The notes under the pieces: model-generated
Told to the model about the DNA's origin: nothing
The model's input: the letters and a program-made list of their open reading frames with translations, nothing else
Databases searched by the model: none
Shown: positions 11,777-52,538 of the stretch, one piece after another
Position numbering within the stretch: the stretch's first letter is position 1
Layout: the number at the start of each line of letters is the position of its first letter
Translations under genes and position numbers: made by a program
NCBI GenBank assembly: GCA_016844925.1
Contig: JAERTI010000055.1
Location: 1,459 to 65,458 of the forward strand
Reading direction: 5' to 3'
Source of the DNA: Candidatus Uhrbacteria bacterium
GTDB taxonomy: Bacteria > Patescibacteriota > Patescibacteriia > UBA9934 > GWF2-40-263
Length of the DNA stretch: 64,000 nucleotides

Positions 11777-12154
11777 TCAGGAAGCCTTGTTGAACACCTG
11801 ATCGCGCTCAAGGATCTCGACCCCCATCATCGGAGGGAGCAACGTCTTGAGGCCCAGCTCGTACTTGCGTGAGAATTCAGATGGGCCAGCAATTGACCGG
11901 CCAGAGAGCATGAGCACTCGCTTGTTCCCCAGACCCACATCGCCGATCACAGACAAGGACCAGTCGTTGTGTGTGCCCAGAACCCATCGCCCGAGACCAG
12001 CCTTACCTCCCTCAGGCTCCCACGTAGGGTCACCTGTTTCCCCCACGATGATCTGCTGAAGACGCCAGGCCAATGCTCGACCAGGATGATCACCCTCCTT
12101 GGCCATCCAGTACGAATCGTTTTCAGGAACAGCTATAAATACACTCACGTTCAC
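11777..12154 (-). CDS. Hypothetical protein (accessory cassette)
   Basis: AAGAAGGTG SD-like site near GTG start (12154 or 12148); followed by ACGAGTG/CACTCGT hairpin plus T-tract. Confidence 0.6.
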   Translation of the reverse strand: MNVSVFIAVPENDSYWMAKEGDHPGRALAWRLQQIIVGETGDPTWEPEGGKAGLGRWVLGTHNDWSLSVIGDVGLGNKRVLMLSGRSIAGPSEFSRKYELGLKTLLPPMMGVEILERDQVFNKAS

Positions 12155-12231
12155 CTTCTTTCTGCCGGATAGAATCCAACGAAATTAAACTAAAGAAAAA
12201 ACAGCCCTGCGTCAAGGCTGTGCGTTGGGTG

Positions 12232-13098
12232 CTAGGGCACCACTCGGAAGTAAATGATCATGATGTCATCGTCAGGATCGATGCAGCGTGACGTGGTCAG
12301 AAGTTCGATCTCGTCCCAGGGCGTGACCCAGGCGCGGCCGCGGAGCTCCCTCATGACCTGCTCGACAATCTGGTTACCGCCGTCGACGCACAGGGCGAAT
12401 AGCTCGTGTTCTCCAACCTGTGAGAGCGGGAACGCGCGGCACTCGGGGATCGACGGAAGTAAATCTGCGAACTCCCAGTCACCGAAGGTGCGCGTTGGCT
12501 CGAGCCGAAGCGTGTGAGACTTGTCACTTGTGACGATCTTCAGGTACGTGATCGTTCCATTTCCGGACATTCGTTGATCCAAGGCGAACCGCTTCTGAGC
12601 CAGTGCGCCGGCGAGCCGACGTCGCTCAGCGCGATTGCTGTAGACATGATCGTCGGAAAGCCTCCTGTAGCCGACACCTCGATCCATCGAGACATAGAAA
12701 CGTCCATCCCCCACCTGAGACAGGTAAAACGTTTCATCAAGGAACGTGACACAACTCGCCACAGCCCCCACGAACCTCAGGCCTGCTCCAGGCTTCAGGC
12801 TTACGCGTTTGCGCCACGGCTCAAGAGACGTCGTCACCGCACTGAAGTTCCCATGCGCATGCACAGGTTCCGGCCGAGCCGTAAACCGATCGCGCAATCC
12901 CACAGCCACCTCGGCCGCAAAGTCAGCCACCTGGTGAGACTTGAGGATCTTGATGTTGTTGCGGTCTACTTCTGCCCCGTGACCATCGACCACGGCAGCA
13001 AAGAACGGTTCCCCCTCCTGGGAGTGCACCGCGCAAGCATCTTCGCTCGGACACCCCTCGTAGCGAGGGACGAACACGAACCGGTACTCAACCCGCAT
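12232..13098 (-). CDS. PP2C/PPM-family protein phosphatase-like protein (accessory cassette)
   Basis: SEDA, AVVDGHG, SQVGDGR, LSDDH, TRTFGD, LCVDGG, DDDI; SD AAGGGAG; own promoter and terminator. Confidence 0.8.
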   Translation of the reverse strand: MRVEYRFVFVPRYEGCPSEDACAVHSQEGEPFFAAVVDGHGAEVDRNNIKILKSHQVADFAAEVAVGLRDRFTARPEPVHAHGNFSAVTTSLEPWRKRVSLKPGAGLRFVGAVASCVTFLDETFYLSQVGDGRFYVSMDRGVGYRRLSDDHVYSNRAERRRLAGALAQKRFALDQRMSGNGTITYLKIVTSDKSHTLRLEPTRTFGDWEFADLLPSIPECRAFPLSQVGEHELFALCVDGGNQIVEQVMRELRGRAWVTPWDEIELLTTSRCIDPDDDIMIIYFRVVP

Positions 13099-13177
13099 CG
13101 GGTCTCCCTTCTTCGCGCCTTATGCGCGAGAAACAAAAGATGCCTGTCTCCAGGCATCCTGTCAATCACTCAATGTG

Positions 13178-13888
13178 CTAGCCGCCAATCACGGTTCCCA
13201 AGAACCGCTTCCCTTTCAAAAGATTATCGAGATTCTCCATGTTCTTTCCGTTTAAGATTCCTACACGGATTCCGCTATGATGAGCCAATCGAGAGGCCAC
13301 GGGATCAAACGGTGCGCTCATGCCAGGGTCCCACTCATTCCCCACCATGGCACGAAAGTCTTTCCATGAAATGTCGCAGATCACCTCAGCGTCTTTATGC
13401 TTATTCGGATCTTTATCGTACACGTAATCAATGTTCGACAAGTTGATCACCACCTTAGCCTTCAAGCGCTTGGCAATACGCGTAGCCACGTAATCTGTTG
13501 ACCAGCCTGGCTTCCATCCTGCTGCAACCATCACTGGCTGCTTCCATCCACGGATTGGCCGACTTGGATCTTTGAGCATGACCGGGTGCGCAACCTCTCG
13601 CAGAACAGTCCTCATAAGATGTCCGTTCAAGCGTGTCGCATGAATCCCCAACCAGTCCAAGTCATCACGCGTAAGTTTTCCAACCTGCCGTGCGGCCTCT
13701 TGATAATGCCGCGCTGTTCCTCCTCCGCCTACAACGATAACAAATCGCCATCCGCGCTTGATATGTTTTTTGATCAACTTCTTCAGGTCCTTCAGGAACG
13801 CGTGATCAATGTTCCCATTAGGAACCACGAGAGAGCCACCGACAGAAATAACAAGCGTAGACGGTTCGAGCGAATTGGAGTGGGTCAT
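13178..13888 (-). CDS. pyrH: UMP kinase (archaeal/CPR type)
   Basis: VISVGGSL, VVGGGGTAR, PGWSTDYVA, YDKDP, APFDPVAS. Confidence 0.92.
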   Translation of the reverse strand: MTHSNSLEPSTLVISVGGSLVVPNGNIDHAFLKDLKKLIKKHIKRGWRFVIVVGGGGTARHYQEAARQVGKLTRDDLDWLGIHATRLNGHLMRTVLREVAHPVMLKDPSRPIRGWKQPVMVAAGWKPGWSTDYVATRIAKRLKAKVVINLSNIDYVYDKDPNKHKDAEVICDISWKDFRAMVGNEWDPGMSAPFDPVASRLAHHSGIRVGILNGKNMENLDNLLKGKRFLGTVIGG

Positions 13889-17434: not shown

Positions 17435-18831
17435 AACACGGCATGCTCACGTGCCCAGCGCTGCAGCTTGTACGTGGCGATTACATCATCCTCGTTGTAC
17501 TCCATAATCTTCTGCAGCAACTTCGGCTTCTTTGTCTTGAGCCATTCTTCAAACCACATCACCGAGTTTGCCCCTGAGGCGTCCTTTGCCCTCCACTGGA
17601 ACCCGATGTAGTTCGCAATATCTTTAAGTGAATAGAATGACAGTGGGAAAATCACCGCCGGTCGCACCACCGCGAGCAAGTCGATCATATTACGGTCAAG
17701 AGCCTCACGCGCGATCTCACTGATTCCATAACGCATCGCAAAGCGCTGCACAACTTCGTGCTCAAACCAACCGTAGTGATAAATAGGTGCATCTAGATGC
17801 CGCTCGATAAATTCAACAAACTCGGCCCACATGGCTCCCTCTTGCTCCGGACTCTCCGCAAAGAATGAGTGATACGTCTGCTCTCCCCCCTCCACGACCA
17901 ACACACCAAACAAATACTCAAAATCCCTTAAAGGATCTGCTTCGATATCAAAATATAATTCAATAGACGCTTCTGGCAACTCAACGCCATGACGAATCAT
18001 GTGCCGGTTCTCTGTAATCGCAATCGCCTGATCCCGCATGGTCTCCAGGCGCCCTGAGTGAACATCCGGAGCGATGGACTCAAGCTCAGAGACAGATTTC
18101 ACAGCCAACTGACGAATCGTTTCAATCCCCGCCTCAGAGAGACGCTTCACCTCTTCGCGCCAAACACGATTCAAGAGCGAAAGATCCTCACAGCTCTCCG
18201 ACTCACTTCGACACTCTGTAAACCATGGCGACTGCTTACACCCAGACGTCACAAAGTGCACCGGACGCTTTCCCGCAACAATCTTCTCAATCTCTGTCAG
18301 CGTAAGTTCGTACTGTGCTTCAAACTCTTCAATCGAATACGGCATCACCTCATTGTCCGCGCTCACAACATACCCCTTATAGGGCTTCGTCCCCTGCACG
18401 CGAGCCAGCAGCTCGGCATAAAAACATCCCTGGAACTTATGATCGTCTCGCACCTGTCGTGAACGTTTGATGTCTGCCGCGACATAATAGTGATCTCCGA
18501 GCTTGGACCGACCCTCAACTTTTTCCAAAATGTCTGGATGCCCCACCCAGTGCTTGTCTACAAGCACCCCATGAAAAATCGTCTGGCGCCCCTCGGCCAT
18601 AAAGGCGAGCGTCTGATTGAACGCCTCGTCAGGATCCTCAGCCGTCACCTCCACCAAATCCTCACGATCAGAAATAATGTCGCGTTCCTTATCCTCAATC
18701 ATCCCGTCATCTTGAAGCCGGTGCATGAGCGCCTCGTGGGGTCGCGCTGCCTGCGCGTGAGCATCAAAATACACCCAGTTTGGGCACTTGAGGTATTGAT
18801 AAAATGTCCGCTCTGTAATTTGACCTTGCAT
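17431..18831 (-). CDS. TM0106-family RecB-like nuclease with RNase H-like C-domain
   Basis: GHPDILEK...DIK, YFDIEADP, IYHYG..E, SYSLK-like FYSLKDIA, YNEDDV. Confidence 0.88.
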   Translation of the reverse strand: MQGQITERTFYQYLKCPNWVYFDAHAQAARPHEALMHRLQDDGMIEDKERDIISDREDLVEVTAEDPDEAFNQTLAFMAEGRQTIFHGVLVDKHWVGHPDILEKVEGRSKLGDHYYVAADIKRSRQVRDDHKFQGCFYAELLARVQGTKPYKGYVVSADNEVMPYSIEEFEAQYELTLTEIEKIVAGKRPVHFVTSGCKQSPWFTECRSESESCEDLSLLNRVWREEVKRLSEAGIETIRQLAVKSVSELESIAPDVHSGRLETMRDQAIAITENRHMIRHGVELPEASIELYFDIEADPLRDFEYLFGVLVVEGGEQTYHSFFAESPEQEGAMWAEFVEFIERHLDAPIYHYGWFEHEVVQRFAMRYGISEIAREALDRNMIDLLAVVRPAVIFPLSFYSLKDIANYIGFQWRAKDASGANSVMWFEEWLKTKKPKLLQKIMEYNEDDVIATYKLQRWAREHAVL

Positions 18832-18888
18832 GAGATAAGTATAACATGACCTGGCTCTTGATTGTGCTGCTTAAAGAAGGAGAGTCCC

Positions 18889-20058
18889 ATGCGCATTCGG
18901 AAGATTCCGTTCCCGCCCATCAACCTCCAGGCATGCCTGGATCCAGACCATCCCGATCACGAGGCTTCATGTACGGAGCTCAGGCGCCAAGCCTGCGACT
19001 ACGGTATTGCCATGCTGTCCGTCGAGGGCGTGACCCCCAGCAGCTACGCGCTGGTCCGTGCCATGATGGAGAGCTACTGGAGCCAGCCCAAGTCGGCACT
19101 GGACCTGGATGTCCGGCCCCAGCACCACCGGCAGGTGGGGCGCATGGAGGCCTACTGCGAAACGGCCATGCCCTACCCCGAGCGCCTCGCCGCGCTCGAG
19201 GAAGACCAGCAGCCGTACCCCCACGCGGGTCCGAACCCACTGGAGCGCTTCTTCTGGCGATTCGGTTCGCGCCCCAGCACGAGCCGCTTCCCCGAGCGTC
19301 ACGCTGACCCGGTCATCCCCGAGCGCTTCGAGCGCGAGTGGGAGCCGGTCATGAACAGCTGGGGCGAGATCGTCCTGGATACCCTGTTCGACCTGGCCGA
19401 GGCCTTGGAATTCGCGTTCCGTCTCCCGCCCGGCACCATGCTGAAGAAGCTGCAGGCGGGCCCCCACCTGATCTCGCCGACGGGCTGCAACCTCCTGGAG
19501 CTGCTGGCCAAGCGCTGCTACAAGCCCGTAGAAGAGCTGTCCTTCGCGCTCAGGCAAGCTGACAGCGAGAACAAGCTCCGTCAGATCAACCGCAACCTGA
19601 GCCTCACCGGCGCGGTCCTCTCTCACTACCACGACGACTTCAACCCCATCACCATCCACGGCCCGGCGAACATGCCCGGCCTGATCTGCTGGGCACGAAG
19701 TGGCGACCCGTTCACGCCCGAGATCCCGTCCGGCTGCCTGTTCGCCCAGTTCGGCGCACAGACCGAGCACCTGTTCGCCGGTGGCCTGCACGAAGATGGT
19801 CCCATGGCGGGCATGCACCAGGTGGTGGTGACCTGGGAGACGCTCCGTGCGCTCTGGATGCGCATCAGACTGGGCCTGCCGCCCATCCGCGTCTCCTCGA
19901 CCTTCTTCGGTCAGGGCAACGCAGACCAGCCCCTGGAGGTTCTGCCCCCGTTCCGTGTGGACGGCTGGCGCCAGCGCTACCCGAGCACCACCTTCGGCGC
20001 TCACTCGGCGGCCGTGATCGAGAAGATCGGTCTGGCCGCTCAGCAGATCGCTGGGTAA
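18889..20058 (+). CDS. 2-oxoglutarate/Fe(II) oxygenase, isopenicillin N synthase-like (accessory cassette)
   Basis: HxD facial triad (YHDDFNPITIHG...GMHQVVV), RVSSTFF; SD AAGGAG; GC3-rich; terminator at 20069-20093. Confidence 0.8.
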   Translation: MRIRKIPFPPINLQACLDPDHPDHEASCTELRRQACDYGIAMLSVEGVTPSSYALVRAMMESYWSQPKSALDLDVRPQHHRQVGRMEAYCETAMPYPERLAALEEDQQPYPHAGPNPLERFFWRFGSRPSTSRFPERHADPVIPERFEREWEPVMNSWGEIVLDTLFDLAEALEFAFRLPPGTMLKKLQAGPHLISPTGCNLLELLAKRCYKPVEELSFALRQADSENKLRQINRNLSLTGAVLSHYHDDFNPITIHGPANMPGLICWARSGDPFTPEIPSGCLFAQFGAQTEHLFAGGLHEDGPMAGMHQVVVTWETLRALWMRIRLGLPPIRVSSTFFGQGNADQPLEVLPPFRVDGWRQRYPSTTFGAHSAAVIEKIGLAAQQIAG

Positions 20059-20118
20059 TCCCCAACGCCCCGTCGTACCACGACGGGTTTTTTGTTACGA
20101 TAATCTCTAGGAGAATCC

Positions 20119-20607
20119 ATGGACGACGACCCAGCCCGCCGCGCGCAACGCTTTCCACTGCTGATCAAACTCGACGAAGACGGTATCGAGTTCACGCACT
20201 TCTTCAACCGCATGGGGCACGTTCGCCTCCCACCCCAGTTCCCCGACCCGCTCCAGAAGCGTGTCCTACAGCTGATCGAACGACTCATGGCTCTACAGAT
20301 CCAAGCCCTCCAGCTCATCCCCGATGAACTACCTCGCTACCAGATCAACGGCACCTGGTCCCCGCTCCCCGCCTCGCTCACCCCAGAGACAGAAGACACC
20401 CTCTTGCTGACTGCCTGGTGGATGGAGCTCGAGAGACGAAAGACCACCCGCCACGACGACTGGGACTGCCAGGAGTGCGGGAAGCTCGTCACACGCAAGC
20501 GTGGAATCTGCCAGAATCACGAATGTGTCTCGTGGGACATCCTCCACATCATCACGGGAGACCCTCATCTCCACCTCGTGCCCAAGACCGGCACAGACAA
20601 CGACTGA
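20119..20607 (+). CDS. Hypothetical protein with C-terminal Cys4 zinc ribbon (accessory cassette)
   Basis: CQECG...CQNHEC; SD AGGAG; extended -10 TGtTACGAT. Confidence 0.7.
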   Translation: MDDDPARRAQRFPLLIKLDEDGIEFTHFFNRMGHVRLPPQFPDPLQKRVLQLIERLMALQIQALQLIPDELPRYQINGTWSPLPASLTPETEDTLLLTAWWMELERRKTTRHDDWDCQECGKLVTRKRGICQNHECVSWDILHIITGDPHLHLVPKTGTDND

Positions 20608-20767: not shown

Positions 20768-21901
20768 ATGGAACAGAGGCAGACCGCCTTGTTCGCCCCG
20801 CGGCTTCTCGTCGCATCCTTCATCATCCTCACGGGCGCTGCCTGCGGTGACCTCTCGGTCTCCGACACGGCGCTCAATGAGTTCGAGCACGCCGGTGGTG
20901 TGTGGGAAACGGACGATGGATTCAGCCACATCGTCTACGATGGCAACAGCTACGGCGACTCCATCACCGACTGCATGAGCACGGAGTACGACTTCGCCCT
21001 CATGTTCGGGGAGTGCTACGAGTACGCTTCCATCCCCTACGCCCTGGGCGCGGTGACGAGTGGCGGCACCATGGACGTGGAGAACCAGTCCACGGGCTCA
21101 TGGGCCACCATGGACGCCTCCAGCTTCCTGGACTTCAACGGCCTCACCCCCGGCATCGCCCGCGTGCTCTGCTACACGGACAAGCCGGAGGAGTACAAGG
21201 CCGACTGCGAGGTCGAGAACGACTACGACAGCTTCGCCCCGGACTTCTACATGGAGATCGACACGGGCGACTACAACACCATCACGGTCTACCGTGGCAG
21301 TGCCAGCAGCGGCCTGGGCGAAGTGTTCCTGGGCAAGGACGGCGACTACAACTGCGACGGCGTGGACACCCCGGACGCCACCGTGCGCCTGGTCCGCACC
21401 TCGCTGGCCTACGACAGCGCGATCATCGAGCTGCTGGGCGAAGGCGGTCACGTCACATGGCCCGAGTGCATGCCCGACGGCTGGTACGACGAGCCCGAGG
21501 ACACCGGCGGTGCCGGCGACACGGGTGGTGACACCGGCATGGCGGGAACCGGTGAGAGCGAGGAGGTTCAGAACTTCCAGTATCCACCGATGTTCTACAT
21601 CACGAAGATCAACGCCCTGTGGCAGGTGACGCCCCAGAGCCAGCAGGCCTACCAGGCCACGGCGGACAGCTTCTTCGAGGAGCACCACCCCGAGCTCTAC
21701 GGCAGCGACATCCACCTGTTCGTGATGCGCCGCATCGACGCGTACTTCACCGACGCCTCCACCCGCGTGTTCTACGACACCCTCCTGAACACCATGGACC
21801 TGGCCGTCGCGCTGGATCTGCAGGCCCCTGCGAACAAGATCTTCGGGCACTGGATCAAGAACTACCGCCACTGGGAAGCCAACCGACAGAACCCTTTCTA
21901 G
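20768..21901 (+). CDS. Secreted acidic lipoprotein with DTG-rich linker (accessory cassette)
   Basis: Lipobox LTGAAC; EDTGGAGDTGGDTG; almost all codons end in C/G; terminator CCCTGACC/GGTCAGGG. Confidence 0.75.
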   Translation: MEQRQTALFAPRLLVASFIILTGAACGDLSVSDTALNEFEHAGGVWETDDGFSHIVYDGNSYGDSITDCMSTEYDFALMFGECYEYASIPYALGAVTSGGTMDVENQSTGSWATMDASSFLDFNGLTPGIARVLCYTDKPEEYKADCEVENDYDSFAPDFYMEIDTGDYNTITVYRGSASSGLGEVFLGKDGDYNCDGVDTPDATVRLVRTSLAYDSAIIELLGEGGHVTWPECMPDGWYDEPEDTGGAGDTGGDTGMAGTGESEEVQNFQYPPMFYITKINALWQVTPQSQQAYQATADSFFEEHHPELYGSDIHLFVMRRIDAYFTDASTRVFYDTLLNTMDLAVALDLQAPANKIFGHWIKNYRHWEANRQNPF

Positions 21902-23116: not shown

Positions 23117-23722
23117 TTACTGTTTGTCCTCCACGCTTACCGTTGTCATTACATCTCCGATAGCGATAGCGTCGACAATCTCGAGCCCTTCAGTCACGCG
23201 ACCAAAAATGCTGTAAGCCTTAGGGAGTGGTACGTCAGCCAACATGATGAAGAACTGAGAACCGTTGGTGTTAGGACCAGCGTTGGCCATGGCCACAATG
23301 CCACGCTCGTACTGATACTCATCCTGCAGCTCATCCTCAAAGCGGTAACCAGGACCACCGGTTCCGTTTCCATTTGGATCACCTCCCTGAATCACGAATC
23401 CTTCTTCGCGACGGTGGAATGTCAGGCCGTTGTAGTACTCACCCTCTGTCAGATAGACAAAGTTTGAGACGGTCTTAGGGGCCGTGTCGGCAAAGAGTTC
23501 AAAGACGATATCGCCTTTCTCTGTTGCAAGCCGAATCTGCTTTCCTTCAATCTTCTCAGCCTCCAGCACTCCAGGGAATGCCCATGCCTCCGGTGTTGTG
23601 TCTGCCACAATCTCTGTTTCGTTAATGGTTAGGTCTGTTTCCTCCTGTTCAGGCTGCGTCTGATTGCAGCCAGCCCCCATGAGCACGAGCAGTGCCAGGG
23701 GCACAAGTACAAATCGTTTCAT
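23117..23722 (-). CDS. Cyclophilin-type peptidyl-prolyl isomerase, lipoprotein
   Basis: APKTVSNF, YYNGLTFHR, IQGGDP, AMANAGPNTNGSQFFI; lipobox LMGAGC. Confidence 0.93.
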   Translation of the reverse strand: MKRFVLVPLALLVLMGAGCNQTQPEQEETDLTINETEIVADTTPEAWAFPGVLEAEKIEGKQIRLATEKGDIVFELFADTAPKTVSNFVYLTEGEYYNGLTFHRREEGFVIQGGDPNGNGTGGPGYRFEDELQDEYQYERGIVAMANAGPNTNGSQFFIMLADVPLPKAYSIFGRVTEGLEIVDAIAIGDVMTTVSVEDKQ

Positions 23723-23751: not shown

Positions 23752-24315
23752 CTAAAATGCTAGTCCGAGCTGTGTCATGACCAGGTCAAATGACGGAGCT
23801 CCGAGAATCACGATCCCTGAAAGGATGGCGATCATGATGGAAAGCACAGCCACAAGCTTCTCTGCACGCATTGGAATGTGATCACAGTTTCGGCAAGTGC
23901 CAATGTACACAATCTTTCGATGCACCTCTACAGGCACAGGCTCGTGCGTCACCTTGCTCTCTGTGACAGAGACAATCGGTGCTTTCATCTCAATAGCCTC
24001 TTCCACAACCTGCTGTACCGTCTTTTCAATCTTTAACTCAACCGTCTGCTTTGCCACAGGCTTCTTGGCGACAGGTTTCTTAGCCGTCACCTTCTTAGCA
24101 ACAGGCTTTTTCTTCGCAACGGCCTTCTTCTTCGCCGCAGGTTTCTTTGCGGCGGTCTTTTTTGCGACCGGCTTCTTCGCAACCGTCTTTTTCTTTGCGA
24201 CAGGCTTCTTTGCTGTCACCTTCTTTTTTGCTGCAGCAGGTTTTTTTGCCGCAGGCTTTTTTGCAGCCGTCTTTTTCTTGGCAGCTGCCGATGGCGCCTT
24301 CTTTTTTGTCGGCAT
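23752..24315 (-). CDS. Histone H1-like Lys/Ala-rich protein with CxxC and C-terminal TM
   Basis: Repeated KKPAAKK/KKPVAKK; CRNC; C-terminal LVAVLSIMIAILSGIVILG. Confidence 0.75.
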   Translation of the reverse strand: MPTKKKAPSAAAKKKTAAKKPAAKKPAAAKKKVTAKKPVAKKKTVAKKPVAKKTAAKKPAAKKKAVAKKKPVAKKVTAKKPVAKKPVAKQTVELKIEKTVQQVVEEAIEMKAPIVSVTESKVTHEPVPVEVHRKIVYIGTCRNCDHIPMRAEKLVAVLSIMIAILSGIVILGAPSFDLVMTQLGLAF

Positions 24316-26348: not shown

Positions 26349-26891
26349 ATGCCCCCTGCTCCTGCTCCCCCGTTCCTGACTCGACTCGACGCCTACAGCC
26401 TCTCCCAAGCCGAGAACATCCTCTTCCTGGGAAGCCTCTGGTTCCTGTTCATGAGCTTCCTCATGTTCGTGCAGCCGGGCCCTCTGGATCCGAAGCTGCT
26501 AATCGGCATGACCATCACGCTTCTGGCCGGCGTTGGACTTGGGTGCTGGAGCATCTGGTACCAGCTCACCGGCGAGCACAACGTGTACAAGAAGTTCATC
26601 ACCCTGTGTGAGGAGCAAAGGCTCCTGCAGCAAGGTGAAGAGCTCGCCGCCAGCTACGCGCAGATCAACAGACTCCGACGCATCTACAAGGAAGACACGA
26701 GCCTGTCTGAGACCATGGTGGCGCGCATGCTCAAGGACCTCGACCTCGAGGAAGAACTCCTCCGCGAAACGCAGGTGGCCCTCCACCTCAAGCAGGCGCC
26801 GCTCCTGCAACGAGCCTTCGAGGCAAGCCGCCACGCGTTCCCCTGGGAGAACTTCACCGAGACGGCCAAGCAACCCGCTGTGAGCACCTAG
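26349..26891 (+). CDS. Hypothetical 2-TM protein with coiled C-terminus (cassette)
   Basis: Two TM helices; GC3-rich; upstream TTGACA at 26280. Confidence 0.7.
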   Translation: MPPAPAPPFLTRLDAYSLSQAENILFLGSLWFLFMSFLMFVQPGPLDPKLLIGMTITLLAGVGLGCWSIWYQLTGEHNVYKKFITLCEEQRLLQQGEELAASYAQINRLRRIYKEDTSLSETMVARMLKDLDLEEELLRETQVALHLKQAPLLQRAFEASRHAFPWENFTETAKQPAVST

Positions 26892-26906
26892 CTCACGACG
26901 CCCACC

Positions 26907-26962
26907 GACCCTCACGCGAAGGGTCTTTTTCTTTTGACAAAAGCTCTCAAAACTCCTAACGT
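26907..26962 (+). repeat. Cassette-boundary element (variant) plus promoter
   Basis: GACCCT-cacgcga-AGGGTC-TTTTTC-TTTTGACA-N17-TAACGT. Confidence 0.8.
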
Positions 26963-26991: not shown

Positions 26992-28509
26992 ATGGCAACG
27001 ACCAGACTCCGGTGGCTCAGCCGGTACCCAATCCCGGGAACAACTGGCCAGCTCATCGGTTCCAAAACAAACGGACTACGCCCTGCAGCAAACGCCTCAG
27101 GTGTGCTTTCAGAGCACATGTCCAACCACGTCCTGAAGAAAATCAATGGCGACCCAGAAGTTCTCGAAGAGATCCTCAGGGCCGTGGTCAACTACTCGGT
27201 GGCCGATTTCCAATGTGCCGCGCATGCGCGCACGGCCATCTTCCGGTGCCTGGTGCAAACGGGTGACAAGTACCTCACTCAACTAGACAGCCTGCTCACC
27301 AAAGCCCACAGGACCTTCTCCAGAATCCCCTACGCTCTGAACATGATCGGCTTCACTGAAGCATGCGGGTTCCGCTACGATCGCGTCGAGCACTACCTCA
27401 TGCTCATCGAAACCCTCGATACCTTCATGGCACGTGAGGTGGGGCCCTGGCTGCCACACGACGACAGACGGAAGCGACCTGCTTACGTTAGCGGTGCGGC
27501 CAAAGGCCTGTCAGAACAACTCGGTCTCGAACCAGGTTCTCTGAAAGCGCTCGGTAAGCCTCCGCTCAGACTTAGACCACGAACTCTCGCTCTAAGCTGC
27601 GAGCTTCACCTCACAGCGCCGGGCGTGAACGAGCTCATGCAGTACACCACGGCCGGCGGAATCGCCCTCACCCTCGGGGCCCTCTGGAGGACCGTCGATG
27701 CCATGCTCCACGCGGGCATGTCTTCCGGATCATTACGCAAGTTCGTCGAACGACTGAACGTCCCCATGCTTCGCTGGGCGCACCAATGCCTCCAAGCAGG
27801 CTCCATCGATCTCAAGATGGTTCGTGCACTACCCCAGCAGCCACTGGACTGGTACATCGCACAGAAAGACCTAAACCTAGACGTTCTCCCTGTGCTGAAA
27901 GCCTGGTCCGATGAAGGCCACCCCTGTGGGTGGAGTGAGTGGATCAAGTTGGGTGGTACCACAGACGCCTGGCAACAAGAGGCCAAAAGGCAGGAGCAGC
28001 GCAAACTCGAACGAGAAGCGCACTTCGCTCAAAAGCAGGCAGGGACAAAGCCGCCATCGCCGCGACCCAAACCAATCCCTACGGTGTCACCTGCGAATCA
28101 AACCCCCACGGGAAGAAAGCGACACCATCCTGGCCACAAAGCACAAGAGCAGACGCAGGAAATCAACTGGGGGGAGACTCTCGTGAATCTCGTAGAGATG
28201 GTTCAAAGCCACCTAGACGATGTTGATGACAATCTCTCCGCTGGAATCCTCCTCTCGCTCATCCGCTCGGGTGATCGCCTCATGCCACGGTCCCGCTGGC
28301 CCAAGATGAAACTCAACAAGCTTCGTCGAGAAGTGAAGCGGCTGGTCGACGGCGCAAGCAACCGTGAGATCAATGCCGCGCTTGGATCCCTAGAGGCCAT
28401 CCGCCTTGTCCGGCAGACCGCTGGCAAGTACCACATCTCCGAAACCACGCCGCGCCACACGGGCGCAGCCGAAATCCGCAAAAGGCTCATCAGCCTCTGC
28501 AGCTCCTGA
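26992..28509 (+). CDS. Hypothetical protein, possible C-terminal winged helix (cassette)
   Basis: 505-aa ORF; SD AAGGAG; C-terminal REINAALGSLEAIRLVRQTAGKYHI. Confidence 0.7.
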   Translation: MATTRLRWLSRYPIPGTTGQLIGSKTNGLRPAANASGVLSEHMSNHVLKKINGDPEVLEEILRAVVNYSVADFQCAAHARTAIFRCLVQTGDKYLTQLDSLLTKAHRTFSRIPYALNMIGFTEACGFRYDRVEHYLMLIETLDTFMAREVGPWLPHDDRRKRPAYVSGAAKGLSEQLGLEPGSLKALGKPPLRLRPRTLALSCELHLTAPGVNELMQYTTAGGIALTLGALWRTVDAMLHAGMSSGSLRKFVERLNVPMLRWAHQCLQAGSIDLKMVRALPQQPLDWYIAQKDLNLDVLPVLKAWSDEGHPCGWSEWIKLGGTTDAWQQEAKRQEQRKLEREAHFAQKQAGTKPPSPRPKPIPTVSPANQTPTGRKRHHPGHKAQEQTQEINWGETLVNLVEMVQSHLDDVDDNLSAGILLSLIRSGDRLMPRSRWPKMKLNKLRREVKRLVDGASNREINAALGSLEAIRLVRQTAGKYHISETTPRHTGAAEIRKRLISLCSS

Positions 28510-28593: not shown

Positions 28594-29151
28594 GTGTCAC
28601 CACACCACACCCCTTTCGAGCAAAGAAAGGGGCCCACCTACTTCACCTACGACGAAGTGCTCGCAAAGAGCGACGTGCAGATCATTGCCCTGAGCCTGCT
28701 GATCCCCGTGATGTTTGGCGCTCTGGCAGCGGCCTGGATCTACTTCCCCATCCCAACCACCGCCCAAGACAACATCCCGCTCTTGGTGACCGCTGGCTTG
28801 ATCTCCTCGCTCTGCGCCGGAGGCATCGGCGTCTCGCGCCTCCTGCGCTTCGACCGCACGCTTCACGCCGTGCGAACAAGCGACGAGGGAAAGAGGCTCT
28901 TCAACCGAGGGAGCACCTTGGCCACACTCCACCAGGCAATCCTGAAGGAGGAGGAAGATAACCACTTTCCTCGAACCAAAGATTCCTTTGAAAAGCGCGC
29001 ACAACGCTACCTTGACCGCTGGACGTACTACATCTCGCAGGCCGAGGCGCTCCACCGAGAGCAGCACAACCTCCTCAAGCTCTTCTACCGAAACGAAAAG
29101 CAGCCCGATCCCTGGAAGGATCGATGCAACTGCCCCAAGTTCGGACTCTGA
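28594..29151 (+). CDS. Hypothetical 2-TM protein (cassette)
   Basis: AAAGGA SD then GTG 28594; two TM helices and a helical C-terminus; architecture like 26349-26891. Confidence 0.7.
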   Translation: MSPHHTPFEQRKGPTYFTYDEVLAKSDVQIIALSLLIPVMFGALAAAWIYFPIPTTAQDNIPLLVTAGLISSLCAGGIGVSRLLRFDRTLHAVRTSDEGKRLFNRGSTLATLHQAILKEEEDNHFPRTKDSFEKRAQRYLDRWTYYISQAEALHREQHNLLKLFYRNEKQPDPWKDRCNCPKFGL

Positions 29152-29239: not shown

Positions 29240-29518
29240 GTGAGCGAACAGAAGATTACCCCAGCTGCCCTGCGCACGGCCTTCAAGCAGTCCATCAGAA
29301 ACTCTCTGGTGGTGGCACTCATCCTGGTCATCTCCATGGCCGTTCTGAGATTCGGCGTCTCACCGGAACCCAACGCAGAGGCCCATGCAATCGTCCTGGG
29401 CTTTGCTGCGCTCCTGCTGGTGATCGTCCTCTGGCACATGATCGGCAACATCTTCTTCTACTGGACCCACCCCGTCCGACGCGCAGCACTCCCAGACCAC
29501 CAGGAACCCTCCTCCTGA
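29240..29518 (+). CDS. Small 2-TM hypothetical protein (cassette)
   Basis: AAAGGA SD plus GTG; two TM helices. Confidence 0.65.
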   Translation: MSEQKITPAALRTAFKQSIRNSLVVALILVISMAVLRFGVSPEPNAEAHAIVLGFAALLLVIVLWHMIGNIFFYWTHPVRRAALPDHQEPSS

Positions 29519-29550: not shown

Positions 29551-29651
29551 TTCCGCAGAACCATTGACATTTCAGTTAAAATGAACTATATTCTCGCTCT
29601 GCTTCATTTGTCATGGTGGAGCGGATGAACCCTACTGAAAGGAGACATGAC

Positions 29652-30491
29652 GTGAGGAAAATCCTCTTTCCCCTGCTGGTCGCGGCGGCCACGCTGCTCA
29701 CCGGCTGCTACGGAACGAACGTGGTCATCAACCCGGCGGAAGTCGGACGCGAGCTGAACCCCAGCGGGCTCAGCGAGACGATCCTCCAGCCGAGTTCCTT
29801 CAACCTCGACTGGTGCATGTACACCTGTCCGAAGCTGGTCCGCCTCGAGGTCGCCAAGGCCACCCGCGAGATCACCATCGAGCGCGTGTTCCTGCCCAAG
29901 AGCAACGTGGACCTCAGCGACGTCGAGATCGCGATGCAGTTCCGCGTCCGCCAGGACCAAGACTCCATCAACACGGTGTTCTCCGAGGTCACCCCGCAGC
30001 CCGCGGGTGTCGAGGACACCATGCTCATCTCCAACGAGATGATCTACGCCACCTACCTCGAGCGCATCGGCCCGGAGGCCGTGATCGAGGCGCTGCGTGA
30101 GTACACCGTCGAGGACGTGCTCTCCAACGTGGGCGAGATCGGCGCGCACTCGCGCGACATGGTCAACCAGCGACTGGGCGACAGCCCCGTCGAGGTGACC
30201 GAGCTCTCCTTCCCCAACGGCATCGGCGACCCGCCCGAAGAGGTCCTGGTGGCCAAGCGGCTGCTGTACGCGGTCGACGAGGAGAAGGCACGCGAGGTCA
30301 AGGCCCTGGAGGCCGAGCTCGCCGTGGAGGAGCAGCGCCAGGCCGTGCAGATGGCCCGCGCCAAGAACGACCTGGCCGTGGCCAAGGTGGTGGGCGTCCG
30401 CTACGACGTCTACACCGAGCTCAAGATCATGGAGCGCTTCGCCGAAGAAGAAGTGCCCCTGGGCTACATCCCCGGCGCCAGCGGCCGATAG
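29652..30491 (+). CDS. SPFH/Band-7 domain lipoprotein (cassette)
   Basis: Lipobox LLTGC; VINPAEVG; band-7-like core and C-terminal coiled coil; SD AAAGGAG plus GTG. Confidence 0.7.
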   Translation: MRKILFPLLVAAATLLTGCYGTNVVINPAEVGRELNPSGLSETILQPSSFNLDWCMYTCPKLVRLEVAKATREITIERVFLPKSNVDLSDVEIAMQFRVRQDQDSINTVFSEVTPQPAGVEDTMLISNEMIYATYLERIGPEAVIEALREYTVEDVLSNVGEIGAHSRDMVNQRLGDSPVEVTELSFPNGIGDPPEEVLVAKRLLYAVDEEKAREVKALEAELAVEEQRQAVQMARAKNDLAVAKVVGVRYDVYTELKIMERFAEEEVPLGYIPGASGR

Positions 30492-30503: not shown

Positions 30504-30887
30504 ATGAACTTCCTCGGACTGATTTCCTTCCTGGTCTTCGTCGCCCTCCTGATCGGCGGCGGTCTCTGGGCGATCCGTCACTCCATCACCCGTGAGGAGG
30601 AGGACGAGCGGAAGATCTTCAAGTACGGTGGCTGGGTGGCCATCGCCCTGGGGGTGTTCATCACCCTGGGCGTGCTCAACAGCTACGGCAAGATCGACGC
30701 CCCCAACCCCCTATCCGCTCCCGAAGCCGAGATCTCCTCGGTTCCCGCGGAGCGCGCCGAACCCCGAGCCCCCACCTTCGAAGAGGACACCACTCCCTCG
30801 GAGATGGAGAAGGCGCGGGAGGATCAGCGCAAGTCGGTGGACGAGTTCACCGAGCACACGAGCAAGGACGACGCGACCGACGAGTAG
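30504..30887 (+). CDS. 2-TM membrane protein, partner of the SPFH gene
   Basis: SD GAAGGAG; two TM helices and an acidic tail; terminator CCCTGGCC/GGTCAGGG-TTTTT. Confidence 0.7.
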   Translation: MNFLGLISFLVFVALLIGGGLWAIRHSITREEEDERKIFKYGGWVAIALGVFITLGVLNSYGKIDAPNPLSAPEAEISSVPAERAEPRAPTFEEDTTPSEMEKAREDQRKSVDEFTEHTSKDDATDE

Positions 30888-34433: not shown

Positions 34434-34454
34434 AAAAAGCATCCGTAGATGCTA
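34434..34454 (-). terminator. Intrinsic terminator of the GNAT cassette
   Basis: Minus: AGCATC-TACG-GATGCT-TTTTTC (cUACGg tetraloop). Confidence 0.75.
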
Positions 34455-34931
34455 GTGATGGAGCCGAAGCTCGAAGTGTCGATCTGAGCCGTCGACTAGC
34501 GTGAAGCCGAGCTTCTGGTAGAGAGACCGTGCGGCTTCGTGCCAGGGCTCGCTTACGAGCCTGATGACCGCAAGCCGTGGCCGAACCTCACGGGCTTGCG
34601 CCAGCAAGTCCTCCATGACCACACGCCCAAGGCCGCAGCCTCGGAAGTCGGTGTCGACCAGAACGTACTCAACGCTGCCGACACCCTTGCGCCAGTCGTA
34701 ACTCACCATGAGCAGGGCCACCGCGACCATCTGGCGGGTCTCTCGCTCACGAATGATCGAGATGCGTGTCCGCGTGCGGTCCATGAGCCTGGCCTGGAAC
34801 AATGCGTCGCGATACTCCAGATCTCCAGAGCGAAGCAGATCCTGCCCACGTTCGTTCAGAAACGTCAGGCAATCTCGGTAGTCTTCCAGCCGAGCGGCTG
34901 CGATTCTGAAACGATCATCGTCAAAGGGCAT
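34452..34931 (-). CDS. GNAT acetyltransferase (cassette inserted antisense in SOS operon)
   Basis: VLVDTDFRGCGLGR, AARSLYQKLGF; perfect SD TAAGGAGGTG before ATG 34931. Confidence 0.85.
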   Translation of the reverse strand: MPFDDDRFRIAAARLEDYRDCLTFLNERGQDLLRSGDLEYRDALFQARLMDRTRTRISIIRERETRQMVAVALLMVSYDWRKGVGSVEYVLVDTDFRGCGLGRVVMEDLLAQAREVRPRLAVIRLVSEPWHEAARSLYQKLGFTLVDGSDRHFELRLHH

Positions 34932-34983
34932 GATCACCTCCTTAGAAAAGACCCTACCAGACCCTCATGACCCGTCAATCACC

Positions 34984-36226: not shown

Positions 36227-36255
36227 TTGACATAAGGGATGAATTCCTCTATATT
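36227..36255 (+). promoter_or_regulatory. Sigma70 promoter with inverted repeat around -35
   Basis: TTGACA-N17-TATATT; ATCCCTTAT(36216)/ATAAGGGAT(36240). Confidence 0.75.
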
Positions 36256-36337: not shown

Positions 36338-36661
36338 ATGGTGAGAACCGCTTGGCTCTCGATCGAGCACATCGCTGTTTCTTCCAAGCAGCGCAAGAAG
36401 GTGTCCCCCAAGAAGGTGGAGAAGCACCGCAAGGCGTTTGAGGAAGACCGATTCGTCGAGCCCATCGACGTCGTGTCCTGCAGGACCGATGAGAAGGAGC
36501 GCTACCGCATCCTCGGCAACGGCCGTCACCGCTACTTCGGCGCGCTGGAAGCCGGCATGCCGCTCATCGAGTGCAAGATCCACGACTCGAGACACGAAGA
36601 CTGGGATACGCACAACCACCCCTCCGCCCCCCAGGGCGAGCGGGTGTTTTTCTTTTTTTAA
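36338..36661 (+). CDS. Stand-alone ParB/Srx N-terminal-like domain protein (cassette)
   Basis: PIDV...YRILGNGRHRYFGALEAG; SD TAAGGAGGT. Confidence 0.7.
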   Translation: MVRTAWLSIEHIAVSSKQRKKVSPKKVEKHRKAFEEDRFVEPIDVVSCRTDEKERYRILGNGRHRYFGALEAGMPLIECKIHDSRHEDWDTHNHPSAPQGERVFFFF

Positions 36662-41303: not shown

Positions 41304-42689
41304 CTAGAGCGGTGCGCAGGCCTTACGGAGCTCGTCCGTCATGCCCTCAAGGTCAGGCCCTCCGTCTGAGAGCTTGCGCATGAGATGCACGTCCGCCAGG
41401 TGAACGTGAGGGAACACGCTGGCACGGACCTTTCGTGCGAACCCGTCGTCCAGGAACGCCCTGGTCTCGGGAACCCGACGCGTGAGGCGTCGGTGGATGG
41501 CACGCAGATCATCATGCCAGGCGATCTGGCGAGAGTCGGCGACATCCTCTCTGCGATCGATGAGAATGGCCGCTTGCAGCAGAAGCTCTTCGAGCTGCCA
41601 GTGCAGATCTCGCAGCACCATGCCGTGGTAGCTCTGCATCAGCACGTCGCGTGAGCGGAGCATCACTGCGGCGGCAGCGTCTGCCCCCTCGCTTTTGGCC
41701 ACGTCAGCAGCCTCGCGCATGATCGCGGCAGCTTGGCGCATATTGCGCACGGAGTGCCGGAGCGACCGCACGAACGGCCGGGTCACGATCTGCTCGAGCT
41801 GACGTGCGTACTGCTCGAGTCGATCCGCCTCACGGCGGACCGTTGCGGTCGAGCGTACAGCTCCGTCGCCACCTGAGCGTCCACGCACCGGCAGCAGACG
41901 ATCATCGCCGAACAGCACCCTGGACTGCAGCCGGTGCAGCTGTGAGTTGCCGATCTGTCGACAGATGATGCGCAGGCGGTCGATGTAGACCTCCAGCACC
42001 ACCTCGCGGAAACTGATACGACGCGTGATGCCTCGCACCGTCTGGATCCGCTCAGCGAGATCCTTCTGCCCAGCGAAGATGATGAGCGGAATGCGCCCCG
42101 GGTTGAACCGGCCCAAGGAGTCCTTGAGCTTGCCAGCCTGGATCGCACGCGCCAGCGCTGCCACCTTGTTCTCGTCGATGACGCGACCATGAGCATCCAG
42201 CAGCGCAGCGGCCACCAGGACGTACTCTTCACGCCCATCTTCCTCCAGGAGATGAAGCGTCCAGGACGTCTTGACCATCCAGTCGAAGGTCTCGTCCCAG
42301 CTCGCGAGAGCCGGAAGCTCGACGTGCTTGCCACGCGTTTGCGCATGCGCCATCCCGCGGCGCGCCTTGTAGACGCTCTCGTACGAGATGAAACACTGCT
42401 GCGCGTAGGTCACCTTCTCTACGCCATTGAGGCGCTCGGACACCCTGAGGTTCCGAGAGAGAATGCGACCGGGCTCCAGCTCCTTGATGCCCTTGAGGGC
42501 CTCGATGCTGTGCGCCGGCACCTCGTAGAGGCAGTGCGGCACGAGCTCGATCAGAGCGAAGTCCTTCACCTCGAGCGGCGGCGGCTTCTTGCCCTTGCTG
42601 GGCCTCTTGCGCAGAAGCTTGAAGCTGCGCTTGATGACGACCAGGTTGAGTGGATCCGGCCACTCGAACGGGTCACGGTAATGAGCCAC
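41304..42689 (-). CDS. Hypothetical Arg-rich helical protein (cassette)
   Basis: 461-aa GC3-rich ORF; SD GAGGAG plus GTG; promoter TTGACA(42765)-N17-TATTTT. Confidence 0.75.
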   Translation of the reverse strand: MAHYRDPFEWPDPLNLVVIKRSFKLLRKRPSKGKKPPPLEVKDFALIELVPHCLYEVPAHSIEALKGIKELEPGRILSRNLRVSERLNGVEKVTYAQQCFISYESVYKARRGMAHAQTRGKHVELPALASWDETFDWMVKTSWTLHLLEEDGREEYVLVAAALLDAHGRVIDENKVAALARAIQAGKLKDSLGRFNPGRIPLIIFAGQKDLAERIQTVRGITRRISFREVVLEVYIDRLRIICRQIGNSQLHRLQSRVLFGDDRLLPVRGRSGGDGAVRSTATVRREADRLEQYARQLEQIVTRPFVRSLRHSVRNMRQAAAIMREAADVAKSEGADAAAAVMLRSRDVLMQSYHGMVLRDLHWQLEELLLQAAILIDRREDVADSRQIAWHDDLRAIHRRLTRRVPETRAFLDDGFARKVRASVFPHVHLADVHLMRKLSDGGPDLEGMTDELRKACAPL

Positions 42690-51020: not shown

Positions 51021-51023
51021 AAC

Positions 51024-52025
51024 TTAGAGATTCCCTACGTGCTCAGCCATGTCGAGCAAGCGCTGGGTATATCCCCATTCATTATCATACCAAGCAAGTA
51101 CTTTCACCAGGTCACCGTCTACCACACGTGTCATACCCAGGTCGACGACAGACCCGTAAGGCGTCTGGATAAAGTCCGTGGAAACCAACGGCTCTTCCGT
51201 TACACCCAGAATCCCCTTCCATCGAGCGCTACGAGCGGCTTTTTTGAACAAGCTATTGATCTCCTTAGCGGTCGTTTTCTTTTTAAGGACAAACGTAAAA
51301 TCGGTAAGTGATACATCCAACGAAGGTACACGCACAGAGATTCCATCAAACTTCCCTGTAAGCTCTGGCATCACCTGCGTGGTTGCTTTCGCTGCTCCAG
51401 TCGTCGTCGGGATGATGTTGGTCAGAGCAGAGCGCGCACGTCGAAGATCTCCTTTCCGCGCCAATCCATCCACAATGTTCTGCTGTGCGGTCACCGAGTG
51501 AATCGTCGTCAACATGGCCTTCTTAATCCCCATGGCATCTTGCAAAATCTGAGCCACAGGAGCCACAGAGTTCGTCGTGCACGAGGCATTGCTCACAATA
51601 TTCTGATTGCGTTTACAGGCACGATGATTCACTCCCATTAAAAACGAAGGCGCATCTCCAGACGGTGCAGAGATAACCACCTTACGAGCACCCGCTGTAA
51701 TATGACCACCAGCTCCCTCAAGTGTTCGGAAGAAACCCGTTGATTCAATGACTACGTCCACCTTGTGCTTTGCCCATGGAAGGTCTGCTGGATTGCGCTC
51801 GCTGTAGACGGGAATCTTTTTAGAGCCAATCTTAATGAAGTCCTTTCCTGCCGTGATCTCCTTATCCCATGTACGAAACACCGAATCGTACTTGAGCAAA
51901 TGCGCAAGTTCCTTTGGATCGGTTAAATCGTTGACCGCCACAAAGTTTAAATCTTTGCGCTTCCAACCCGCACGAAGGGTCGTGCGGCCGATGCGACCAA
52001 ACCCATTAATAGCAACTCGAATCAT
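51024..52025 (-). CDS. gap: Glyceraldehyde-3-phosphate dehydrogenase
   Basis: INGFGRIGR, SNASCTTN, IIPTTTGAAK, AWYDNEWGY. Confidence 0.97.
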   Translation of the reverse strand: MIRVAINGFGRIGRTTLRAGWKRKDLNFVAVNDLTDPKELAHLLKYDSVFRTWDKEITAGKDFIKIGSKKIPVYSERNPADLPWAKHKVDVVIESTGFFRTLEGAGGHITAGARKVVISAPSGDAPSFLMGVNHRACKRNQNIVSNASCTTNSVAPVAQILQDAMGIKKAMLTTIHSVTAQQNIVDGLARKGDLRRARSALTNIIPTTTGAAKATTQVMPELTGKFDGISVRVPSLDVSLTDFTFVLKKKTTAKEINSLFKKAARSARWKGILGVTEEPLVSTDFIQTPYGSVVDLGMTRVVDGDLVKVLAWYDNEWGYTQRLLDMAEHVGNL

Positions 52026-52163
52026 AAAAAATGTAAGTGATGAAAATAAGTTTATCTTCATTCTACCACTTACCTCCGTTGACTTCGAGGTGTTTCTGAG
52101 CTATTTTATCGGCGTCACCAAAGTGAGAGTGGCACCAATACCCCACTGGGAGGATAGAAGGAC

Positions 52164-52538
52164 ATGGAGCAGATGACGCTGATCGAACGCCTCTGGAAGG
52201 AGTTCCGCGAGAACACCCTGGAGGAGCTGAAGTTGCTGCTGTTGAACAAGCTCTGTCCCGACGGCGCCACCAACGCTGCCGTCGGCAAGGTCTGGACGAT
52301 CCTGTCCAGCATGCGCGCCCGCATCAAGGGCAACGCCCTGATCGTCACCATCCTCGGCGTCGAACAGAGCGTCGTCCACGCCGCGCTCTGCGACGAGGAG
52401 TTCTGCTACTGCCACCCCGATGGCGAGATCAAGCTCCCCCCGGAGCCCGGCGCCGCGCGCCTGGCCATCCACTTCCCGCTCCCGAGCTCGGACACCCCCA
52501 TCTTCACGGACTTCCTCACCGGCGCCACGCCCGCCTGA
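52164..52538 (+). CDS. Hypothetical protein (cassette)
   Basis: GC3-rich; promoter TTGACT(52079)-N17-TATTTT; GGAGG/AAGGA upstream; downstream CCCGCC/GGCGGG hairpin. Confidence 0.65.
   Translation: MEQMTLIERLWKEFRENTLEELKLLLLNKLCPDGATNAAVGKVWTILSSMRARIKGNALIVTILGVEQSVVHAALCDEEFCYCHPDGEIKLPPEPGAARLAIHFPLPSSDTPIFTDFLTGATPA

Follow-up and report, generated by a model that had tools for sequence, protein, structure and literature searches.

We describe two classes of genes with separate expression signals in the genome of a Candidatus Uhrbacteria bacterium (assembly G000; 1.57 Mb, 56 contigs, 97.7% complete, 1.9% contamination). The window, i.e., the whole stretch of 64,000 nucleotides that was analysed, is a part of its contig C55 and occurs in marine metagenomes; 17 genes of the window had been set apart by the original prediction. 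The genes of class B are led by a Shine-Dalgarno (SD) sequence and are rich in G and C at third codon positions (GC3); the backbone comprises the remaining, low-GC3 genes. The split between these two inherited grammars is a real, lineage-wide feature, which belongs to no known family. As to its meaning, the best single explanation, to which we give an even chance, is the proposal, made from sequence, that the vertically inherited class B is a payload for machinery of the host type, from RNA polymerase and ribosomes to tRNAs and lipoprotein enzymes. The new element is three mismatches of class B with the cell's own machinery, namely, in the lipobox, in the codon CCC and its tRNA-Pro, and in genomes lacking the anti-SD. 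A literature search, with most subscription papers outside its reach, gave no description of two such classes or of host expression.

Genes were called with two programs written for the analysis, one trained on codons and offering both start models to each gene and the other scoring amino acids only; for the relatives and small control loci, an adaptive caller and the amino-acid-only caller were used. Genome-wide counts refer to contigs of at least 20 kb (1103 genes; 789 low-GC3 and 255 high-GC3). The GC3 distribution is bimodal and is best described by two components (BIC -1539, vs -1102 for one and -1523 for three) with means 0.527 and 0.818 and weights 0.74 and 0.26. An SD of at least 5 nt precedes 187 of the 255 high-GC3 genes and 68 of the 789 low-GC3 genes; T immediately before the start codon, T(-1), is found in 26 and 690 of them, upstream TTGAC in 129 and 99, and a GTG start in 24 and 17, respectively. 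All four traits switch at the same GC3, 0.65-0.70. The amino-acid-only caller gives a similar picture (SD-type 5-mer in 153/239 vs 100/830, T-ATG in 27/239 vs 678/830), as do the genes whose chosen start is the first possible one in the open reading frame (ORF), with T(-1) in 12/127 of class B vs 463/523 of the backbone. The features form two classes, not a continuum: when 12 and 18 genes of the two start types are matched at GC3 0.65-0.70, their AT-tract densities still differ, with 8 and 26 per kb, respectively.

The promoters of class B have the form TTGACA-17-TAnnnT and lie mostly 50-80 nt upstream of the start; in their -10 box T, A and T are conserved at 71%, 74% and 79% (139 sites). At the heads of backbone transcription units, TANNNT lies 8-9 nt upstream of ATG in 95/399 cases, compared to 0/235 for class B, and this placement predicts near-leaderless backbone mRNAs. 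Backbone translation starts are of the form U(-1)AUG, with no SD, either near a -10 box or coupled within an operon. Class-B genes usually stand alone (213/256 vs 209/791) and show no co-orientation with the surrounding backbone (115 same, 139 opposite; for the backbone itself, 610 and 166). A terminator was considered as a class marker and rejected: at unit ends it is about equally frequent (249/400 in the backbone, 163/232 in class B), and its frequency follows from standing alone.

Both classes are inherited. A genome of the same genus (G001; 547 kb of its 1.1 Mb examined) has a bimodal GC3 too, with 0.41 and 0.69; G005 and G030 show the same split, and in the parts of G004 and G006 that were examined such genes are few. 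Of 358 reciprocal best pairs between G000 and G001, 348 keep their class (300 backbone, 48 class B, 10 mixed). Four-fold sites are near saturation, with a residual identity of 0.15 in the backbone and 0.17 in class B. The GC content at these sites (GC4) in G000 and G001 is 0.81 and 0.65 for class B and 0.51 and 0.37 for the backbone, i.e., both classes move with the genome. The offset kept over nearly saturated silent sites implies a lasting class-specific force on top of the mutation bias. The SD is kept in at least one genome in 46 of the 48 class-B pairs. The family of the window gene at 41304 adjoins uvrD in G001, G005 and G006 with the SD kept, and all its named members are Uhrbacteria or Patescibacteria. 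It had been suggested that independent transfers hardly explain a uniform grammar, and a check had been proposed of whether these genes are vertically old; the saturated pairs and the 41304 family in four genomes speak against independent recent transfer. Recent horizontal islets are rejected, since the signals do not fade with age and the GC4 offset persists near saturation. No near-identical outside donor was found for four genes (best non-self identities 34%, 47% and 64%; the 41304 family is named only in the Candidate Phyla Radiation, CPR). A chimeric assembly is rejected as well: the junctions between the backbone and class B are spanned by contigs, about 95% alike, from a second study, and G001 shows synteny.

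Class B could also be an accessory pool, whose units cycle through phages and CPR or non-CPR genomes with universal signals and are kept by turnover and weak use, with no special reader; we find this improbable. Whole units are indeed replaced or lost at terminator boundaries between the strains about 95% alike: in place of 26897-28523 the related strain has 647 other bases, and 29553-30935, with an SPFH gene, is missing there. A partner in G000 exists for only 49/79 of the G001 genes of class B, compared to 276/332 in the backbone, and the proteins of class B show lower conservation (a median of 56%, vs 78% in the backbone). Two large viral contigs, L218 and L219, encode relatives of the SPFH protein (29652), each followed by a look-alike of its membrane partner, recognised by eye. 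However, this was so for one of five class-B queries, the other four having no viral relatives; there is no close donor (best plasmid matches 34-47%); and the saturated pairs and the 41304 family attest to long residence with kept signals. PHROG matches were obtained for 3 of the 17 window genes, none structural; together with the single query with viral relatives, this speaks against a prophage remnant. An integron cassette array, in which cassettes have no promoter, is disfavoured, as 14 of the 17 match a promoter of their own. Of the dedicated gene-capture process, one of the options proposed earlier, no sign was found; strains do, however, exchange whole units.

At 24906-25110 lies a non-coding repeat, about 200 bp long, with a terminator-like hairpin and a central palindrome; it has 11 longer copies in the assembly, several at contig ends, and is also present in G001. 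In the related strain its copies directly follow two class-B genes, those with ends at 20607 and 32803. It looks mobile. The repeat has no Rfam match, and no Y1 transposase was found.

The interior of class-B genes is also distinct. Relative to synonymous shuffles, four-base A/T tracts occur at 0.35 in class B and 0.83 in the backbone, compared to 0.82 in rhizobial and 1.15 in Sphingobium controls; the purge is strong in G000, G001, G005 and G006, and the large-phage locus L218 (14 genes) shows a similar one. The depletion of TANNNT in class B is exact in spacing (0.45 vs 0.72 for TA-6-T; 0.40 vs 0.68 on the reverse strand); the backbone has 0.81 vs 0.98, and the rhizobial control lacks such a depletion. 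The loss on both strands at this spacing points to selection against internal -10 boxes. In mycobacteria, the synonymous creation of TANNNT fires internal promoters, according to the available part of PMC10653884. The purge is selection at the DNA level, which is silent on whose polymerase reads the DNA. An alternative without selection on signals is a class-specific mutation or repair regime (e.g., untranscribed genes escaping transcription-linked C-to-T changes), which would raise GC3 by itself. It has in its favour that no CarD/Mfd domain was found in the G000 assembly and that spacers between class-B genes are GC-richer (0.54 vs 0.46). Nevertheless, it cannot make SDs at a spacing of 4-9 nt, the -35/-10 geometry or the spacing-specific loss of TANNNT, and it leaves an amino-acid-level difference in the lipobox unexplained; we consider it highly improbable.

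This lipobox difference is the first mismatch. Lipoproteins were predicted by our own rule. In G000, G occupies position -3 in 15/17 backbone lipoproteins and 1/14 of class B; pooled with five relatives, which as kin are not independent, the counts are 26/29 and 1/20. The backbone lipobox is of the GAGC type, while that of class B is canonical. The lipoprotein enzymes are not missing from the order, a possibility that we rejected: Lgt is present in 41/41 and LspA in 38/41 genomes, and both are backbone-type in G000. In a Wildermuthbacteria genome (G260), an SD-led SPFH gene forms an operon with a 79-aa gene carrying a VTAC lipobox, a single example; no Lgt was found in the 17 genomes searched from five families, G260 among them.

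The second mismatch concerns codons. High expression was rejected as the cause of the class-B codon bias, because the 25 ribosomal-operon genes (all T(-1), GC3 0.31-0.54, preferring GGT, CGT, GTT, GCT and CCA) shift the opposite way in four-fold boxes. ARAGORN lists 43 tRNAs in G000, with proline served by Pro(UGG) only; tRNA-Ile(UAU) and tRNA-Arg(GCG) are present. When a Pro(GGG) pattern was derived from tRNAs of this kind in other CPR (three sequences) and applied to the 41 genomes of the order, one matched. The use of CCC relative to other boxes is 0.55 in the backbone and 0.88 in class B of G000, and 0.50 vs 0.85 in G001; thus, the CCC penalty of the backbone nearly vanishes in class B.

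The third mismatch comes from genomes without the anti-SD. In G000, the 16S rRNA ends in GATCACCTCCTTT, a canonical anti-SD, and the anti-SD is intact across the order; a missing anti-SD is therefore rejected for this genome, and the check proposed in the original prediction does not force expression in a host here. (A 3.7-kb contig, C30, has another 16S 3' end, unlike the first, together with tRNA-Ile and tRNA-Ala; it is likely contamination of the bin.) Part of the Parcubacteria have lost the CCTCCT motif, as stated in the part available to us of Tsurumaki et al. 2022 (PMC9297842). The canonical tail was matched in 88/201 genomes; 74 of the 113 others were searched again, of which 33 matched and 30 loci were examined. 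For most CPR tails failing the first pattern, loss is rejected, since CCTCC is retained in many of them, which have GAATACCTCC or a similar sequence. Five tails without CCTCC or a near variant remained, and five more genomes from one of their families complete the set. The SD test covered 636 kb with 507 genes in eight of these ten genomes and compared genes whose GC3 exceeds the median of their genome by 0.11 or more with those less than 0.06 above it, the 42 genes in between being left out. GGAGG lies 3-20 nt upstream of the start in 15/26 high-GC3 genes and 17/439 backbone genes (G085 8/10, G064 2/3, G194 2/7, G208 1/1, G260 1/3 and G252 1/2; G165 and G257 have no high-GC3 genes). The control motifs GGCGG, GGTGG and CCTCC gave 0-2 of 26, and GGAGG at internal starts gave 12/413. 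The spacing of these SDs matches that of class B in G000. The gene for prephenate dehydratase keeps its SD in G085, G252 and G245, all without the anti-SD, and its silent sites are near saturation (0.48 between G085 and G252, 0.30 expected); its distant homologue in G257 and G248 lies behind metG and is backbone-type. Named matches of a second SD-led family in these genomes are Patescibacteria or an unassigned "bacterium" only. Changed 16S tails were also seen (L158, L159, L153), with ACCGCC in G169 and G225 and ACCCC in G211; G225 and G211 have three and one high-GC3 genes, respectively, and those of G225 still have AGGAGG-type SDs.

A number of observations weigh against reading by a host. 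The evidence from genomes without the anti-SD comes from another CPR class and 636 kb, with 8 of the 15 positives in G085; the SD-led genes there lack the AT-tract purge (W4 x0.81) and could come from CPR donors having the anti-SD. In G030 and G004 the purge is weak. GGAGG is depleted inside backbone genes in 5/5 genomes with the anti-SD (ratio 0.57-0.69), whereas the ratio is about 1 in four of the six genomes without it; because the avoidance is found mainly where the anti-SD is present, the cell's own ribosome likely pairs with SDs. The rpsU gene is SD-led (-8 kcal/mol or below) in 12/29 loci of the order, though not in G001, and 27 low-GC3 genes have an SD of at least 6 nt, some on likely contaminant contigs. 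Region 4 of RpoD looks intact by eye, so that -35 boxes are apparently within its reach, and the -10 spacing is the same in those backbone promoters that have TTGAC. Genes of tRNAs are often missing from assemblies, and the cell's own Lgt and LspA could process class-B lipoproteins at home.

The rival that draws on these facts is a second native programme, in which the cell's own RpoD and ribosomes would express class B in one life stage or ribosome state; in our opinion, it is rather unlikely. Among its variants are ribosomes free of bS21 with a freed anti-SD, as in Bacteroidia, and a condensed nucleoid with H1-like proteins silencing the AT-richer backbone. The intact anti-SD across the order, the SD of rpsU, the avoidance of internal GGAGG and the presence of Lgt and LspA all favour it, as do four ECF sigmas, two H1-like K/A/P-rich proteins and the fact that no Rho was matched over the cut-off in G000, so that intragenic promoters may be costly at home. 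SD use gated by bS21 is shown in PMC9976891, as far as the available part of that paper goes. What this programme leaves unexplained is the SD-led genes where the 16S has no anti-SD, the lipobox split, the loss of the CCC penalty and the canonical lipoprotein of G260, where no Lgt was found; moreover, the SD of rpsU is patchy.

Two side observations concern the same proteins. The gene rpsU (bS21; C53 12562-12807 in G000, L114, and loci L115-L143) has a strong SD in those 12 of 29 loci, with other ribosomal genes having none, and its autoregulation, possible by analogy with Flavobacteriia, may be considered. The H1-like proteins are encoded at 23752-24315 of the window and at 124257-124700 of C36, and the N-terminal tail of RpoD is similar; the C36 gene has backbone codons yet a very strong SD.

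Returning to the reading by a host, the idea in the original prediction of genes meant for the machinery of a different cell receives genuine, if indirect, support from the two lipobox types, from the use of the proline codon CCC and from SD-led genes in genomes without an anti-SD; it loses from the canonical anti-SD of the cell itself. It is tempting to propose the following mechanism. Once the cell is attached to its host, chromosomal DNA or mRNA would pass into the latter via the conserved VirB4-type channel; alternatively, both cytoplasms would mix. Only the units carrying host signals would be expressed by the host, and the SD-less, AT-richer backbone would be mostly silent there. The products (candidates are phosphatases, kinases, acetyltransferases, SPFH and other lipoproteins, transporters, enzymes of NAD, CoA and polyamine metabolism, and ORFans) would remodel the metabolism and membranes of the host, similar to phage auxiliary genes. 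Selection in the host, atop the mutation bias of the parasite, would keep the grammar uniform across unrelated genes. A VirB4-like operon of backbone type is present in G000 (family CD1110 above the cut-off). The lack of co-orientation with the backbone, the spacing-specific loss of TANNNT, the opposite codon shift of the ribosomal-operon genes and a class-B NadA-like gene with no NadC found also count in favour of a host reader. An archaeal polymerase would not read sigma-70 promoters; thus, with an archaeal host, only the mRNA route or a shared cytoplasm would fit. Some Paceibacteria parasitise methanogenic archaea, according to the part of PMC10936435 at hand. More broadly, and only tentatively, with odds a little short of even, the chromosome of Patescibacteria may hold two genomes: a backbone that the cell expresses itself, and a scattered payload, written for the host and delivered by a type IV secretion system (T4SS) without a relaxase.

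The features of the window on which the original prediction was made are listed below, with a backbone gene for comparison.

11777..12154, minus strand: ORFan, weak member of class B, GC3 0.63, GTG start, no clear SD, own terminator.
12232..13098, minus strand: PP2C-family phosphatase, class B, GC3 0.69, SD with dG -8.7, TTGACA 67 nt upstream.
18820..18847, plus strand: -35/-10 promoter-like site of the gene at 18889.
18889..20058, plus strand: class B, GC3 0.87, AAGGAG; 2OG-oxygenase-like by eye only.
20069..20087, plus strand: hairpin, similar to an intrinsic terminator.
20119..20607, plus strand: ORFan of class B, GC3 0.78, AGGAG, free of AT tracts of four.
20768..21901, plus strand: predicted lipoprotein, class B, GC3 0.91, weak SD; the sole class-B lipobox with G at -3.
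23117..23722, minus strand: cyclophilin lipoprotein of the backbone (comparator), GAGC lipobox, T(-1), no SD.
26349..26891, plus strand: membrane ORFan, class B, weak SD.
26907..26925, plus strand: terminator of the GACCCT..AGGGTC type.
26992..28509, plus strand: ORFan of 505 aa, class B, AAAGGAG.
28594..29151, plus strand: membrane ORFan, class B, GTG start.
29240..29518, plus strand: small membrane ORFan of class B that starts with GTG; it has an orthologue in G001 (52%).
29564..29592, plus strand: TTGACA-17-TATATT promoter-like site of the SPFH operon.
29652..30491, plus strand: SPFH/Band-7 predicted lipoprotein, class B, canonical LTGC lipobox, GC3 0.94.
30504..30887, plus strand: membrane partner of the SPFH protein.
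30967..31851, minus strand: fatty-acid hydroxylase/sterol-desaturase family, OlsE-like (below the cut-off), class B.
31976..32803, plus strand: inositol monophosphatase/CysQ family, class B.
34452..34937, minus strand: GNAT acetyltransferase, class B (AAGGAGGTG).
36227..36255, plus strand: TTGACA-17-TATATT promoter-like site.
36338..36661, plus strand: ParB-like protein, class B (AAGGAGGT).
41304..42689, minus strand: 461-aa family, class B.
52164..52538, plus strand: ORFan, class B, GC3 0.96; orthologue in G001.

All 17 ORFs are present where they had been placed, and they do prefer codons ending in C or G (GC3 0.63-0.96, vs 0.46-0.64 in the others) and start with GTG more often (6/17 vs 1/48 of the other called window genes). 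Several other claims needed limits. The canonical SD pairs at -5 kcal/mol or below in 13/17; 11777 has no clear one, and those of 20768 and 26349 are weak. The statement that T never occurs at -1 is true of the window (0/17 vs 42/48), not of the genome, where the 26 high-GC3 genes counted above have it. The promoters found in 14/17 refer to a permissive pattern, TTG(A/C)(C/A)-spacer-(T/C)(A/G)nnnT, and the extended -10 also claimed for these genes is mainly a backbone trait (160/789 vs 12/255). The hairpin with a T-tract, seen in 14/17, is not class-specific, and the monocistronic arrangement, which prevails genome-wide, is broken by the two-gene operon 29652-30504. No integrase or transposase was found among the 66 window ORFs scanned; 15 tyrosine-recombinase matches occur in the assembly, most on small contigs. 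Of the products named, PP2C, GNAT, ParB-like, SPFH and IMPase were recovered, while the oxygenase at 18889 has no library match (nor a viral relative). The protein of 11777 has no Pfam or PHROG match, and PADLOC matched 0/17; an Rfam search of the window gave no match.

The gene at 26349 has a syntenic orthologue in G001 that keeps the same grammar at 37% identity. The GACCCT..AGGGTC terminator has eight copies in the genome, five of them in the window. A contig scan of the genomes with 30967 gave no relative. The predicted fold of the 41304 protein (pLDDT 75) has no match at E <= 0.001 in PDB or BFVD, and the Atlas look-alikes of 20768 and 41304 score only 0.80-0.82. The GNAT gene at 34452, whose SD is retained in the G001 and G005 orthologues, interrupts on the opposite strand a backbone-type SOS cluster (lexA, a small ORF and a DinB/UmuC polymerase; 32915-36216), and G001 has it at the same place. 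The ParB-like gene has an orthologue in G005; directly 5' of it lies a tiny SD-led upstream ORF (about 36310-36337), which occurs in G005 too, with its own SD. The ParB-like ORF reads through what is apparently its own terminator and ends in FFFF.

Beyond the window, 96 of the 133 class-B proteins lying wholly inside the stretches obtained of contigs C43 and C38 have no Pfam match. The matched ones include NAD enzymes (NAPRTase, NadE, NadA-like, NrtR), enzymes of CoA and polyamines, a kinase, PP2C, GNATs, transporters, an FtsH paralogue, and pentapeptide and MopE-motif proteins; the MopE-motif protein has no plasmid match. The NadA-like gene is present while a search of G000 for NadC found none. 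On C43 (about 1-55 kb and 94-137 kb; L031-L037), small class-B ORFans form long one-directional arrays with recurring hairpin junctions; close to one copy of the 200-bp repeat, the direction of the arrays is reversed.

The closest known logic is that of the Agrobacterium T-DNA, where genes in a bacterial genome carry the signals of another cell and VirB/VirD4 type IV delivery reprogrammes host metabolism. Class B likewise would consist of resident genes with signals for a foreign reader, and G000 has a T4SS ATPase. Unlike T-DNA, its presumed reader is prokaryotic, and its genes are a quarter of those of the chromosome, spread one by one between core operons. The T4SS is present in most Patescibacteria as a chromosomal operon of the VirB4/TrsD/VirB3 type, mostly without a relaxase and near comF/recG/radA in ABY1 (the part of PMC12102498 available to us); class-B DNA or mRNA is a candidate substrate for it. 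The closest SD pattern is that of Bacteroidia, which keep the anti-SD, have no SD in most genes and often an SD-led rpsU (PMC9976891, in part). However, Flavobacterium has a strong SD almost only on rpsU, whereas here about 190 unrelated genes (187 of the 255 of class B) are SD-led; the SD is tied to differences in codons, promoters and the lipobox, and SD-led genes persist in lineages without the anti-SD. The loss of CCTCCT in Parcubacteria is confirmed here in 16S tails; the persistence of SD-led genes there is not mentioned in the part of PMC9297842 that we cite. Class B resembles phage auxiliary and takeover genes in its small stand-alone modifiers, NAD and nucleotide enzymes, the SPFH lipoprotein and the AT purge shared with L218; it differs in that the window has no structural genes, most tested class-B genes have no viral relative, and inheritance is chromosomal. 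Similar to horizontally acquired islets and integron cassettes, it has an odd composition and modular, strain-variable single genes; in contrast to them, the offset is kept over saturated silent sites, each unit has its own promoter, and no integrase was found in the window.

We believe that the observation bears on how CPR bacteria exploit their hosts and on what the conserved relaxase-less T4SS carries. Even if both grammars are native, their joint inheritance, from promoter to lipobox, fits no system with which it was matched, and lineages that lack the anti-SD make the question of a host reader directly testable. If a quarter of the genes is indeed expressed by the host, CPR parasitism would be a genetic takeover, with cells infecting in the manner of phages, and metabolic models that assign class-B enzymes to the parasite would be in error. 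CPR ORFans by the thousand would then be candidates for proteins acting in the host, selectable by a simple sequence rule, and the style of codons, promoters and lipobox would help to predict hosts, the payload grammar being a host fingerprint.

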